This document shows positions 46,626 to 57,048 of a DNA stretch of 64,000 nt, one piece after another. The notes under the pieces were generated by a model, which ran no database searches, was not told where the DNA came from, and worked only from the letters and a program-made list of their open reading frames with translations. Source of the DNA: Bryobacterales bacterium (GTDB lineage: Bacteria; Acidobacteriota; Terriglobia; Bryobacterales; UBA6623); NCBI GenBank assembly GCA_963422375.2, contig OY729428.2:1280001-1344000 (forward strand). Reading direction: 5' to 3'. The first letter of the stretch is position 1, and every line of letters begins with the position of its first letter. The translations under genes were made by a program, and so were the position numbers.

Positions 46626-49600
46626 ATGCCGTTCGGCTGGCTGGCCGGCGTGATCGCCGGCAAGATTCTCGGCTCCGCCGCCGCCGCCACCAAGGCGTTC
46701 GCCATCCTGAAGGGCGTGATCGCCGCGGGCCTGGCGGCGGGCGCGTCCTACGGAGCGGGCCTGGTGATGCGCCTGGTGGCGCGCGACGCCCGCCCCGGCG
46801 GCACGCGGATGGAGGCCCTCGCGGGGGCCAAGTCGACCGTCGCGAGCGAGGTGGTCGCGGCCCGCTGGGTGCTGGGCCGGGCCCGCGTGCCGGGCGTGCT
46901 GGCCTACTTCCGGGCCGAGGGCCGCGCGGCGCACCTGGGGCTGGTCCTGTCCGAGGGCGCCTGCGAGGGCATCGACGGCAAGTGCTGGATCGACGGGCGC
47001 GAGGCGAACCTGGTCGAGGACGCGGGGCGGTCTTACGGCGGGAGGGCGCTGGTGCCGGAGGAGGGCGACCGCTACGAGGGCAGCGTCCGGATCCGCGAGT
47101 ACTTCGCGGCCGACGGCACGCAGGGAGCGGCCATGCGCACGGCCTACCGCGGCGGCGCGCTCAAGTACCGCCAGCCGCTCCCGGACGGCGACGGCTGGAA
47201 GGAGACCGACGCGCCGAGCCGCGAGACGACGCAGGTGCAGCGGGCGCTCTTCACCCCGGACGACGGCGGCCTGAACTCCGCCAACTTCGACTACGACTAC
47301 GCGACGGGCAGCGTCCGATACCGCCGCGACCGGAACTGGGAAAGCGAGTTCGACGCGGACCCGGACGGCGGGGACGGCGACGAGCCCGCGGACGGCAGCG
47401 AGGTCGCCGGCAGCTGGGACTTCGCCGGCGCCTCCTGGACCCAGTGGACCTGGGACCACATGCCCTGGTCCGAGCACCACCGCCTGGACGGCCTGAGCTG
47501 GGTCTACGTGCGGCTGGACCAGCCGCGGCGCGCGGGGAGAGCCGCGGCCGAGGACCGCGTCTTCACGCGGGTGCCCGCCCTCGAATTCCTCGTCAAGGGC
47601 GTCAGGATCGCCTGGCCGGGGCAGCCCGTCCCGGCCTGGACCGACAACGCCGCCGCGATCCGCTACTGGTGGGAGACGGAGCGCCGCGGGCGCGCGCCCG
47701 GCCGGATCGACCGGGGCGAGTTCGACGCGGCCTTCGCCCTCTGCGAGGCGGAGATCGACTGGACCGCCGAGGTCCGCGGGCGGCTGCCCGCCGACTACGC
47801 CGGGTTCACGACGAAGGCGAAGCGCTACGCGGTCGGCGGCGTGATCTCCTCCGAGGACGACGCGAGCGAGGTCGAGGAGCAGCTCGACGCCGCGTGGGCC
47901 GGGGAGGTGGTCGAGTCGGGCGGCCGGCTGCTGTTCCGGCCGGGCGCGGACATGGCCGCGGCCTCGCAGGAGATCGGCGAGGCCGACATCGCGGAGCCGC
48001 CCGCGGCGCGGCCGTGGGCCTCGCTGCAGGAGCGCGTCAACGCGGTCACCTGCGAGATCGCGCAATCCCGCGACCACGGCTGGACGCGCCTGGCGCTGCC
48101 GCTCTTCGAGGACGCCGCGGCGGTCGCGCGCGACGGCGAGCGCCGCGAGGGCGGCATCCGCCTGGCCTTCGTCTCCGACCCCGTCTCGGCGGCCAGGCTG
48201 CAGGCGACGAACCTGCGCCGCGGCCGCGAGAGCCTGCGGCTGGATCTGGCCGTCGCCCCCGGCCCGGACTTCCGGCGGCTGGCGCTGGCCCCGGGCGACC
48301 TGGTGCTGCTGACCTGCTCCGAATTCGGCCTGGCGCGGGCGCGCATGACGGTGGAGCGCTCCGCGATCCGCGAGGACTGGAGCGTGGCGCTGACGCTGCG
48401 CGAGTCGCACCCGGACACCTACGAGGACACGCTGGTGCTGCCGGAGCTGAAGGCCCGCGAGATCGCCGTCCCGGAGCCCTCGCCGGTGCCGGACGTGCGG
48501 GGGCTGGCCCTCGACGAGATCGCGTCCACGGCCCCCGACGGCGCCGTGAGCGTGCGCATGGTCGCGACGTGGGACGAGGCCGGCGCGCCGACCACCGAGG
48601 TGCAGTGGCGCGAGGACGCGGATCCGGCGGGCCCGCCCGAGACGCGCGTGGCCGCCGGGGGGCGGCATTCCTTCCCGGCGACGGCCGGCAAGGCCTACCT
48701 GGTGCGGGCGCGGCACGTCTCGGCGGCCGGCGAGGCCGGCCCGTGGTCCGGCGCGGCGCGGCGCGCGGCCGGCGGCGACCTGACCCCGCCCGGGGCCGTC
48801 GCGGACCTCGCGGTCCTGGCCCTGCCGGGCGGCTTCGAAGCCTCCTGGCGCAACCCGCCCGACGCCGACTGGGGCCTCAACGCCGTCTTCGTCGGCGCGA
48901 CCGACGACCTGGCCGCGGCCTCCCAGGCCGCCTCGGTGGGCGCGGACCGCGCCAGCCTGGGCGGCTACGCGGCGGGCGTCAAGCTCTACGTGTGGGTGCG
49001 GGCCAAGGACCGCAGCGGCAATCTCGGCCCCCCCGCGGGCCCGGCCGAGGTCACGCCCACCTCCCCGGCCGAGGAGTCGGCCAGCATCTTCGCCGGCGCG
49101 GGGCCGCCGACGGACGAGGATCCCGCGGCCGCGAAGGACGGCGACATCTACGTGCAGGCCGACGGCGTCCTGTGGACCCGCGAGGACGGCGCGTGGGCGA
49201 AGACGCCGGTCGACCTGACGGGCGAGGACGGCGCGACGATCCACGTGATCGCCGCGTGGACGCCGGAGGCGCTGGCGGCGGTGCCCGCGCCGCGGGACGG
49301 CGACGTGGCCATCGCCGCGGACGGGGCGTGGGGCGAGCGCGTCGCGGGCGCGTGGCAGCGGCGGGGCGACCTGACGGGCCCGCCGGGAGAGCGCGGCCCG
49401 GCGGTGTTCCAGATCGCCGAGTGGCCGCCCGGCAAGGCGGTCGTGGCCCAGCCCATCGAGGGCGACGTGGCCATCGCCGACGACGGCCAGTGGGGCCGCT
49501 ACGCGGACGGCGCGTGGACGCGGGTGGGCGACCTGACGGGCCGGGACGGCTCGCGCATCCGCCGCGTCGCGGCGTGGGACGCGGCGCGCCTGGCCGCGCT

Positions 49601-56497: not shown

Positions 56498-57048
56498 ACG
56501 GCCCCTGGAGCCTGGTGCCCGGCGCCGTCGACGACTGCGCGGGCCTGCTGCGCGCGCTGCTCGACAGCACGGAGCTGCGCCCCGGCACCGTCAACGGCGA
56601 CGGCTCCGTGCGCCCCGACATCCGCCGCTCCGCCGTCGGCTGGCCCGACCCCGCCCGCCACGCCGCCGAGCTCGCCCGCGTGCGCCGGGCCGTTCTCGCG
56701 GCCAACCGCGAGCTGTGGGGCTTCGATCTCGACGGCGGCGAGGAGTGGCAGCTCACGCACTACACCCATCTCGACGCGGGCGTCTACGAGCGGCACATGG
56801 ACTGCTCGCTGGAGGGCGGGCGGCCGCGCTGCCGCAAGGTCTCCGTCTGCGTCAACCTGTCCGACCCGCGCGACTACGAGGGCGGCTCGCTGCGGCTGGG
56901 GGCCGTGGGCCAGCCCGACCGCGCGGCGCTGCGCCAGCGCGGCGCCGCGCTGGTCTTCCCCAGCTTCGTCGAGCATCGCGTCACGCCCTTGCTGGCCGGG
57001 GAGCGCTACTCCCTCGTCGCCTGGTTCTCCGGGCCGGCCTGGCGCTAG
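56494..57048 (+). CDS. 2OG-Fe(II) oxygenase (prolyl 4-hydroxylase/PKHD-like)
   Basis: YERHMD (HxD), RKVSVCVNLSDP.DYEGG.L, FPSFVEHRVTP...GERYSLVAW. Confidence 0.9.
   Translation: MNGPWSLVPGAVDDCAGLLRALLDSTELRPGTVNGDGSVRPDIRRSAVGWPDPARHAAELARVRRAVLAANRELWGFDLDGGEEWQLTHYTHLDAGVYERHMDCSLEGGRPRCRKVSVCVNLSDPRDYEGGSLRLGAVGQPDRAALRQRGAALVFPSFVEHRVTPLLAGERYSLVAWFSGPAWR

Follow-up and report, generated by a model that had tools for sequence, protein, structure and literature searches.

A predicted collagen lysine-modifying enzyme of three fused domains, encoded among collagen-like tail fibre genes of a temperate acidobacterial prophage

The hydroxylation of collagen lysines and their glycosylation with glucose and galactose (Glc-Gal) are usually considered a chemistry of animals, mimivirus being, to our knowledge, the sole exception among viruses. 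Here, we analysed a window of 64,000 nucleotides from the genome of a Bryobacterales bacterium (contig OY729428.2, positions 1,280,001 to 1,344,000), in which seven genes on the + strand at 46626-57048 encode a tail tip protein with collagen repeats, a 642-amino-acid (aa) enzyme, three stand-alone collagen-like proteins (col1, col2 and col3), a small accessory open reading frame (ORF) and a 2-oxoglutarate (2OG)/Fe(II) oxygenase. The co-oriented, tightly packed order of these genes, described in a first-pass annotation of the same DNA, was recovered in our analysis: neighbouring genes abut or overlap by a few bases, and their GC content at third codon positions (GC3) is 0.90-0.99. Judging from sequence and structural models, the phage that encodes them probably hydroxylates and glycosylates its own collagen-like fibres by means of the 642-aa enzyme, with the oxygenase as a companion.

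Among the closest described systems, mimivirus R699 is a proven galactosylhydroxylysine glucosyltransferase (excerpts of PMC9546862), and further work covers mimivirus L230, R699 and R655 (parts of PMC5802723 and PMC12279948) as well as the structures of the human enzymes (part of PMC11897130). For prokaryotes, sections of a 2022 review describe collagens that are mostly devoid of hydroxylation and glycosylation (PMC8968730), and Iyer et al. in 2010 predicted from operon neighbours that bacterial collagen-like and tail-collar proteins are hydroxylated by dioxygenases of the beta-hydroxylase type and sulfated by sulfotransferases (excerpts of PMC2938197). Our literature search, with subscription journals and supplements outside its scope, returned no paper on PLOD-type or COLGALT-type enzymes in tailed phages. 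The earlier statement that there is no characterised tailed-phage equivalent thus agrees with this search, but uncharacterised homologues are present in cultured phages, as described below.

The 642-aa protein had been annotated as a GT25/PLOD-like enzyme. Glycosyltransferase (GT) domains of both types were indeed identified, but the description was incomplete: a predicted lysyl-hydroxylase (LH) domain is fused to them, and the gene cluster carries two oxygenase domains in total, one in this enzyme and one in the 184-aa protein. Pfam GT_PLOD (PF25342) matched enzyme residues 249-449 with 45.6 bits (cut-off 27), and Pfam GT25 matched with 29.4 bits (cut-off 24), covering only positions 52-101 of the 199 in the profile; clade relatives of the enzyme cover the full GT25 model (for example, P0055 at 1.3e-20). 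Among the protein sequences in PDB, human LH3 matched at 9.5e-22 (GT domain 1.1e-5; LH domain 1.3e-12, chain residues 541-711), COLGALT1 at approximately 6e-5, mimivirus R699 at 1.8e-4 and mimivirus L230 at 3.3e-3.

Structural comparison gave a concordant picture. An AlphaFold2 (AF2) model computed from 59 sequences, which replaced a model from 14 sequences, reached a mean pLDDT of 93.0 and a pTM of 0.82. When this model was used as a Foldseek query, LH3 was retrieved first (4.7e-25), followed by the isolated LH3 GT domain, R699 (7.7e-14), COLGALT1 (2.0e-12) and the LH domain of L230 (5.5e-11). The first domain (residues 1-228) aligned with residues 339-579 of COLGALT1 (VIA Z 24.6, root-mean-square deviation (rmsd) 2.2 Å, 216 residues); the second (224-456), of GT-A fold, aligned with the human LH3 GT domain 6wfv (Z 29.6, rmsd 1.9 Å, 217 of 233 residues) and with R699 (Z 28.9); and the third (456-640) aligned with residues 682-895 of L230 (Z 20.8, rmsd 2.6-2.9 Å, 174-176 residues). 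The double-stranded beta-helix of the third domain is nearer to lysyl hydroxylases, the best prolyl hydroxylases and PKHD proteins reaching only Z 15-16.4, and mimivirus R655 matched the enzyme fold with Z 18.2. Thus, PDB sequence search, Foldseek and VIA alike place each domain nearest to collagen enzymes among solved proteins, and the 642-aa chain is best described as a predicted fusion of a COLGALT1-type GT25 domain, an LH3-type GT domain and a lysyl-hydroxylase domain. The chain is devoid of both an accessory (AC) domain and a signal peptide; because it has no signal peptide, the enzyme would act in the cytoplasm, in a bacterium.

These relationships bear on an alternative explanation, namely that the genes form a lysogenic-conversion (moron) module, whose GT25 and oxygenase domains modify the host envelope or host proteins and whose collagens are unrelated neighbours. 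Such a role would fit the Pfam designation of GT25 as a lipopolysaccharide (LPS) biosynthesis family, the PHROGs class of both oxygenase-bearing proteins (moron, auxiliary metabolic gene and host takeover) and the position of the cassette, which ends the late operon and adjoins a low-GC insert encoding a GHKL ATPase and Dcm. However, each of the three enzyme domains has its closest solved relatives among collagen enzymes and not among LPS enzymes, on which ground LPS modification was rejected; an extreme bias of lysine towards the Y position is found only in collagens accompanied by the enzyme; and the gene follows tail-fibre genes in lytic phages, too (S-CAM9 and CRP-6). We therefore regard a moron function as extremely unlikely.

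The catalytic residues of the animal enzymes could be mapped onto the phage protein. In the C-terminal catalytic domain of GLT25D1, C412 is assigned to uracil stacking, D436 to ribose, D437 to Mn2+ and D522 to the catalytic base, whereas for the LH3 GT domain roles are described for the DXXD motif, the UDP-binding Trp and Tyr, the poly-Asp residues D190/D191 and the gating residue W145 (excerpts of PMC12987934 and PMC9546862, respectively). In HMMER alignments, C70, D94, D95 and D168 of the phage enzyme correspond to the four GLT25D1 residues, in the same order; the DxxD motif D297-G-Y299-D300, W265 (UDP-binding), K275, W330 (gating), D389/D390 (poly-Asp) and H444 (metal ligand) align with the LH3 GT domain; and, in the LH domain, H573-x-D575 and H620/H622 fall on the iron triad of LH3 and R632 on its 2OG-binding Arg. 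The LH3 counterparts are W75, K89, D112, Y114, D115, H253, H667, D669, H719 and R729. Across 59 sequences from two clades, H74, E93, D95, D168, K275, D297, D300, E326, D408, H444, H573, D575, H620 and H622 are invariant, and C70, D94, W265, Y299, W330, D389, D390 and Q391 reach a conservation of at least 90%. Most of the mapped residues are similarly well kept among the 14 closest homologues, in which R632 never varies. Because the mapped catalytic residues are conserved, all three active sites look intact.

An intact-looking pocket is no proof of activity, however, because GLT25D1 has an N-terminal GT domain that binds UDP-Gal without being catalytically active (excerpts of PMC12987934). It is conceivable that the collagens are hydroxylated and glycosylated in a non-animal way, by addition of a single sugar to hydroxylysine, as by mimivirus L230, or of other sugars, by glycosylation of another residue such as Thr at the Y position, or with one GT domain that serves only as a scaffold or binds sugar nucleotides, like that N-terminal domain. 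Thr is the commonest Y residue both in the tip collagen (25 of 97 triplets) and in the clade-B loci with a small oxygenase described below. By contrast, both GT domains of the phage enzyme keep the catalytic residues of their homologues (the base D168, DxxD and the poly-Asp pair D389/D390), and the two domains match two successive animal steps and are fused in at least 59 cluster representatives from two clades. A departure from the animal route thus appears unlikely.

The presumed substrates show a matching peculiarity. The uninterrupted G-X-Y runs encoded in the window comprise 49, 28, 24, 39 and 48 triplets, far beyond chance; additional runs in other frames or on the opposite strand were rejected, being these same repeats read in a shifted frame. 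In the tip protein, two collagen regions (approximately 50187-50627 and 50814-51239) are followed by a variable C-terminal domain. The four collagen-bearing proteins together contain 311 triplets (97 in the tip protein, 68 in col1, 72 in col2 and 74 in col3), with Lys at Y in 63 cases and at X in one. The single exception is in the tip protein, which carries 14 Lys at Y, whereas all 19 Lys of the col2 triplets and all 28 of the col3 triplets are at Y. Lys makes up 6.6% of col2 and 9.5% of col3, compared with 0-4% of the other proteins of the phage, in which Arg accounts for 10-14%.

The association of the enzyme with collagens recurs in related genomes. A word-indexed search yielded 13 other full-length homologues at 42-53% identity, and genome scans located 17 loci, all in acidobacterial metagenome-assembled genomes (MAGs; 15 Bryobacterales, 1 Terriglobia and 1 Acidobacteriota), with up to four loci per MAG. 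One further locus of this clade (clade A), an IMG/VR contig, brought the total to 18 related loci. The order tape measure, distal tail protein (Dit), hub, small tail protein, tip, enzyme, collagens, 87-aa ORF and oxygenase is kept, although the collagens precede the enzyme in some loci. G-X-Y runs are present in 17 of the 18 loci, the exception carrying only a 32-residue fragment match, and in the 1620 triplets of these 17 loci Lys occurs 301 times at Y and 19 times at X.

More distant relatives came from an exhaustive profile search: 4401 cluster representatives scored E <= 1e-3, among them 197 with E <= 1e-30, and many of the 150 top-ranked ones matched the profile across all three domains. 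In a quick maximum-likelihood tree, 59 full-length sequences formed two clades, each with 100% SH-aLRT support. Loci of the second, marine clade (clade B) were recovered with a 12-sequence alignment of that clade, which matched at least 542 IMG/VR stretches, of which 80 loci were kept. G-X-Y runs of at least 10 triplets were encoded in 45 of the 80, nearly always upstream of the enzyme gene and on the same strand: in 41 of the 52 loci with at least 3 kb of upstream sequence, and in 4 of the 28 with less. In these runs (5490 triplets), Lys occupies Y 1943 times and X not once. Clade B also includes cultured phages, namely Synechococcus phages S-CAM9 (gp218), S-PRM1 and S-8S53/55/56 and Roseobacter phage CRP-6 (gp58); the 11 records of these homologues, 25-26% identical over 90-93% of the query, are annotated as hypothetical proteins or 2OG oxygenases. 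The enzyme gene directly follows a tail-fibre gene and two small 2OG oxygenase genes in S-CAM9, and two tail-fibre genes and a tail protein gene in CRP-6.

As a control, IMG/VR viral contigs were chosen by a collagen-like DNA pattern alone, which gave 75 loci on 67 distinct contigs. The full enzyme was encoded in none of these 67 contigs; two contained partial weak matches, one to the oxygenase domain only and the other to the first 93 residues only. In the 6276 control triplets, with base composition unmatched, Lys occurs 199 times at Y and 78 times at X. Thus, most phage collagens occur without the enzyme and contain few Lys, which are found at X as well as at Y, whereas collagens that accompany the enzyme are Lys-rich, with Lys essentially at Y only. 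Co-occurrence of the enzyme with collagen genes in phage and MAG sequences, which the first-pass annotation had named as a check of its interpretation, recurs in two deep clades.

The searches also returned other domain combinations. Approximately 70 loci in Actinomycetota MAGs (L110-L181), many of them labelled Ilumatobacteraceae, match the LH domain only (query positions approximately 460-624, 38-44% identity), so that stand-alone LH-like oxygenases are common in freshwater-type actinobacterial bins or their phages. In five proteins (P0040, P0044, P0073, P0083 and P0105), the pair of GT25 and PLOD-type GT domains is part of longer architectures of 875-1112 aa, which add a second GT25 domain, an N-terminal methyltransferase, or an OGFOD2-like or 2OG oxygenase C-terminus past a long spacer.

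Taken together, we propose that, during lytic growth, the collagen-like fibre proteins, that is, the collagen stalk of the tip and the three stand-alone chains, would be made in the host cytoplasm and modified before or during trimerisation. The C-terminal 2OG/Fe(II) domain of the enzyme would first convert Lys in X-Lys-Gly, at the Y position, to hydroxylysine; the N-terminal GT25 domain would then attach a first hexose, as COLGALT1 does with galactose, and the middle LH3-type domain a second one, as LH3 and R699 do with glucose. The enzyme would draw on UDP-sugars of the host and depend on 2-oxoglutarate, O2, Fe2+ and Mn2+, and the 184-aa oxygenase would probably hydroxylate prolines of the same chains, so that the outcome would be hydroxylated, glycosylated tail fibres. 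We infer the activity of the enzyme and its action on the collagens from homology, fold, catalytic residues, the placement of Lys at Y and the recurrence of the association relative to the control; the two sugars are putatively galactose and then glucose. In these respects the first-pass interpretation of the fibres is supported computationally. Its suggestion that they might mimic animal extracellular matrix is not: nothing seen here supports it, and relatives were found in acidobacterial MAGs, in phages of free-living Synechococcus and in a phage of a Rhodobacteraceae strain.

Several observations weigh against this proposal. Mimivirus L230 reportedly places glucose, not galactose, directly on hydroxylysine (Luther et al. 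2011). Among public RNA runs, none was listed as containing the region. The LH domain of the phage enzyme scored 24.8 bits with Pfam 2OG-FeII_Oxy_3, under the cut-off of 27, and the first AF2 model, from 14 close homologues, had a pLDDT of 66, with about 30-55 in the LH domain. Of the clade-B loci for which 3 kb or more of upstream sequence was available, 52 in all, 11 showed no collagen run. The related loci are not independent, comprising near-identical prophage copies and sharing ancestry, so that their counts overstate the number of independent observations. Because col1 contains only 2 Lys, both at Y, it would be a poor substrate. As to the companion enzyme, profile A4 matched an algal (Chlamydomonas) prolyl 4-hydroxylase (P4H) weakly, with E 0.029; the 184-aa protein fell below all four NCBIfam PKHD cut-offs (best NF003974, 47.6 bits against 143); and the clade-B loci with a small oxygenase place Pro at X and not at the animal position Y.

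The second 2OG-Fe(II) oxygenase of the first-pass annotation does have an Fe/2OG core: its Pfam score is 47.3 bits, and the motif H-x-D...H...R (H101, D103, H161 and R171), that is, the triad and the Arg, is invariant in 9 sequences. Its identity as a collagen prolyl 4-hydroxylase is not borne out to the same extent, P4H being matched only at E 0.03. Among solved proteins, profile A4 matched the PKHD-type putative oxygenase Sbal_3634 (1.2e-9) and the pseudomonal iron uptake factor PiuC (7.2e-9), and in the ESM Atlas the 184-aa protein matched generic viral 2OG-oxygenase clusters only. We assign it to the P4H/PKHD superfamily and regard it, tentatively, as a candidate prolyl hydroxylase.

The composition of the neighbouring collagens links the small oxygenase to proline without fixing the position or the chemistry. 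In 25 of 82 clade-B loci, the three-domain gene has a relative of the 184-aa protein as its immediate neighbour. In 24 IMG/VR clade-B loci with a small oxygenase, Pro occupies X in 621 of 2241 triplets and Thr is the commonest residue at Y (928 of 2241); in the 56 loci without one, Pro is at X in approximately 164 of 3249 triplets (by subtraction), outside the seven commonest X residues. The latter loci (from the set L022-L101) favour Gln or Ser at X, and Lys is more abundant still at their Y positions. Throughout clade B, few triplets have Pro at Y (46 of 5490). In the collagens of clade A, where the oxygenase is always encoded close by, Pro is at Y in 327 of 1620 triplets, compared with 196 of 6276 in the controls, where Pro is found at X 1245 times. 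The 311 triplets of the window contain Pro 77 times at Y and 66 times at X.

It is thus quite possible, if somewhat less so than the opposite, that the 184-aa protein is no prolyl hydroxylase at all, but acts on another fibre residue or on another phage or host protein, or that it acts on Pro at X. The PKHD-type proteins among its best solved relatives and the weak match to algal P4H are in line with this, as is the fact that its presence in clade B tracks Pro at X and not the rare Pro at Y. Nevertheless, the tracking of Pro-rich collagens as such speaks for proline as the target. Against a restriction to X stand the enrichment of Pro at Y in clade A and the precedent of Bacillus anthracis P4H, which hydroxylates X and Y prolines alike (according to sections of PMC8968730). 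For the 87-aa ORF between col3 and the oxygenase gene, no match was found in Pfam, PHROG, NCBIfam or the ESM Atlas, although tblastn detected counterparts at the same position in seven related loci (L001, L003, L004, L006, L007, L012 and L014).

The three stand-alone collagens were compared between the window (53692-56265) and seven related loci (L001, L004, L005, L006, L008, L015 and L018). They are three paralogues, present as such in related prophages, that share a conserved N-terminal motif of about 30 residues with the core I-R-W-x-I. Two of the three have a Tyr/Asp-rich C-terminal tail that ends near a Cys; col1 itself combines the I-R-W motif with a tail rich in Tyr and Asp with one Cys, and the col2 tail reads GY..GY..AGC. 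Across the eight distinct loci, the span of the collagen domain ranges from 120 to 284 residues, with a standard deviation (SD) of 60 between loci and a mean SD of only 7.4 within loci. Accordingly, the lengths of the paralogues covary (pairwise r 0.986-0.997), and none of 20,000 permutations was as tight. Matched lengths fit either co-assembly into one heterotrimer or a shared length constraint, and gene conversion among the paralogues and shared ancestry are alternatives. A heterotrimeric fibre of col1, col2 and col3, matured by a complete animal-type programme (hydroxylysine, galactosyl- and glucosyl-galactosyl-hydroxylysine, and hydroxyproline) through the fused enzyme and a small prolyl hydroxylase, is an idea that derives from the length covariation only, and we consider it doubtful.

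We infer the presence of col1-3 in the virion from their operon position. They might instead be matrix or adhesion proteins, released or displayed by the lysogen; bacterial collagen-like adhesins exist, and the NCBIfam Scl and Lcl families match the collagen repeats of the tip, far below their cut-offs. However, no signal-peptide-like N-terminus was seen in the col1-3 sequences, which are encoded in co-oriented, tightly packed genes of the tail operon and whose PHROG matches are tail-fibre families, and a tail-attached fibre would account for the conserved 30-residue motif and the matched lengths. A role of this kind, outside the virion, is therefore very unlikely. The features discussed are compiled in Table 1.

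Table 1. Features of the tail module and of the prophage, in window coordinates, with the evidence for each assignment
Feature	Coordinates	Strand	Evidence
Tape measure protein	41023..44280	+	PHROG tape measure families, best 4.3e-26
Distal tail protein	44992..45579	+	phrog_1302 6.6e-12; 52-60% identity and conserved synteny among related loci
Tail hub-like protein (start approximate)	45576..46169	+	phrog_2048 tail protein 6.2e-8, on the frame of ORF 44478-46169; conserved in related loci
Small conserved tail protein	46166..46624	+	Pfam DUF6950 3.9e-5, 24.2 bits, below cut-off 27; 53-59% identical in related loci
Central tail tip/host-specificity protein, J-like, 1704 aa	46626..51740	+	Pfam Collagen 4.4e-34; phrog_5616 tail fiber 2.1e-40; phrog_31 central tail fiber J 7.2e-30
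Three-domain enzyme, 642 aa (predicted)	51748..53676	+	Pfam GT_PLOD 6.4e-12, GT25 8.9e-7
Enzyme domain 1, residues 1-228: GT25, COLGALT1-type hydroxylysine galactosyltransferase-like	51748..52431	+	Pfam GT25; COLGALT1 phmmer 3.9e-6
Enzyme domain 2, residues 224-456: LH3/PLOD-type GT, galactosylhydroxylysine glucosyltransferase-like	52417..53115	+	Pfam GT_PLOD
Enzyme domain 3, residues 456-642: putative 2OG/Fe(II) lysyl hydroxylase domain	53113..53676	+	LH3 LH domain, i-Evalue 1.3e-12
Collagen paralogue 1 (col1), 280 aa	53692..54534	+	Pfam Collagen 4.4e-23; orthologues in related loci
Collagen paralogue 2 (col2), 288 aa	54543..55409	+	Translation; PHROG collagen-like tail fibre families
Collagen paralogue 3 (col3), 295 aa, alternative start 55396	55378..56265	+	Pfam Collagen 1.2e-31
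Accessory ORF, 87 aa	56234..56497	+	Conserved just upstream of the 184-aa oxygenase
2OG/Fe(II) oxygenase, 184 aa, P4H/PKHD superfamily, candidate prolyl hydroxylase	56494..57048	+	Pfam 2OG-FeII_Oxy_3 4.2e-12, 47.3 bits against cut-off 27
Temperate siphovirus-like prophage, ~42 kb	27816 to ~70163 (~6.2 kb past window end)	.	GC and genome self-comparison

The temperate phage setting of the tail module, already noted in the first pass, was corroborated. GC content is 0.75-0.84 over 28-56 kb of the window and 0.60-0.70 in the flanks, and megablast of the window against its own genome (6.0 Mb in 3 contigs) revealed the block three times, with sharp repeat boundaries and with copies on both other contigs (C1 and C3) that are 95-99.9% identical. 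Upstream, PHROG matches identify the large terminase subunit (1.2e-107), portal (5.6e-103) and major head protein (6.8e-66); a CI-like repressor is encoded downstream of the tail module, and a YqaJ recombinase, a ParB-N protein and a tyrosine integrase just past the end of the window. Genes for head, tail, lysogeny and integration thus share a single block of distinct composition, which identifies a temperate tailed prophage. A gene transfer agent was considered and rejected, since the terminase, the lysogeny and integrase genes and the three mobile copies argue for a phage. Among ClpB sequences, that of the host is 88% identical to one from a Terriglobia MAG, and its other 79 matches, at 65-85%, are nearly all labelled Acidobacteriota (mostly Bryobacteraceae and Acidobacteriaceae at 73-81%); the host is, therefore, an acidobacterium.

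The three prophage copies diverge chiefly in the collagen repeats (window positions 55378-56265 and 50179-51271). col3 carries an 18-nucleotide (two-triplet) insertion or deletion between copies, as seen by blastn, and the collagen region of the tip protein differs in repeat number. No differences separate the three copies in the enzyme gene, col2 or the 87-aa ORF, and it is the C1 copy alone that deviates in col1 (1 substitution) and in the 184-aa oxygenase (6 substitutions).

Other features of the prophage and its genome were noted. Contigs C1 and C3 have both ends inside prophage copies; either a copy lies across the junction of each replicon or the assembly was broken at the repeats. Between the tail module and the repressor gene, an insert of low GC content (0.60) at 57447-60838, identical across the three copies, encodes a GHKL-type ATPase (763 aa) and a Dcm cytosine methylase, and is possibly a defence or anti-defence moron. 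A tRNA-Arg (CCT) gene is located at 36990-37062, within the head-tail region. Segments 35954-38419 and 43787-45583 resemble C2:2438739-2441184 (95.6%) and C1:585154-586950 (90-97%), respectively, which points to further related prophage remnants. Finally, a 220-aa ORF on the - strand (44258-44920), between the tape measure and distal tail genes, has a hydrophobic, signal-peptide-like N-terminus and a host-like GC3 of 0.85; neither this ORF nor the overlapping ORF on the + strand (44273-45001) has relatives in the 18 related loci.

The carriers of the enzyme span temperate acidobacterial phages, cyanomyoviruses and a roseophage, with the gene in tail-fibre operons. If the proposed modification is real, phage fibres can be glycoproteins of the animal-collagen type, which would open a new approach to host recognition and to the stability of fibres. 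The fused enzyme would be a natural 'Rosetta stone', a single-chain counterpart of the human LH3-COLGALT1 complex, and enzymes from viruses of bacteria, which may express well in E. coli, would become available for the production of modified recombinant collagen in bacteria. Should the heterotrimer exist as well, heterotrimeric collagen and a full lysine-glycosylation pathway would both occur in viruses of bacteria. The proposal is directly testable, because the cultured phages S-CAM9 and CRP-6 carry the gene.

In comparison with known systems, the phage enzyme has the same three catalytic modules as human LH3/PLOD3 and GLT25D1/COLGALT1 (8zgc; LH3 6fxk and 6wfv; COLGALT1 9evj), with the mapped residues conserved, and shares with them the presumed target, Lys at Y of G-X-Y. 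Unlike the human enzymes, to which it is 16-26% identical, it consists of one 642-aa chain in the order GT25, GT and LH, and lacks the AC domain, the non-catalytic N-terminal GT domain of COLGALT1 and a signal peptide. Mimivirus L230, R699 and R655 (6ax6/9nev, 9dyt and 9crz) are likewise virus-encoded enzymes that modify collagen Lys, alongside viral collagens, and their folds match; however, they are separate proteins of a giant virus of amoebae, whereas the activities predicted here are fused and encoded in the tail-fibre operon of a 42-kb temperate tailed phage. The homologues in cultured marine phages have the same GT25, PLOD-type GT and LH architecture and, in S-CAM9 and CRP-6, the same location directly downstream of tail-fibre genes, but are only about 25% identical to the acidobacterial enzyme, belong to a separate clade and reside in low-GC genomes, those of the S-CAM9 type being T4-like myoviruses (S-CAM9 belongs to Kyanoviridae).

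The 184-aa protein shares the 2OG/Fe(II) core and the H-x-D...H...R motif with Bacillus anthracis P4H (3itq), PBCV-1 vCPH (5c5t), PiuC and Sbal_3634, but differs from the PKHD and P4H groups in scoring under every NCBIfam PKHD cut-off and in matching collagen-type P4H weakly. The operons of Iyer et al. resemble the present one in that prokaryotic collagen-like proteins are predicted to be hydroxylated by dioxygenases encoded next to them; they differ in the dioxygenase families and in the sulfation, and the excerpts of that paper (PMC2938197) feature neither PLOD/LH, GT25 or LH3-type GT domains nor a tailed-phage tail operon. Thus, viral modification of collagen is known from mimivirus, whereas the tailed-phage setting, including temperate phages, the three-in-one architecture and the wide, previously unrecognised distribution of the predicted enzyme are new.

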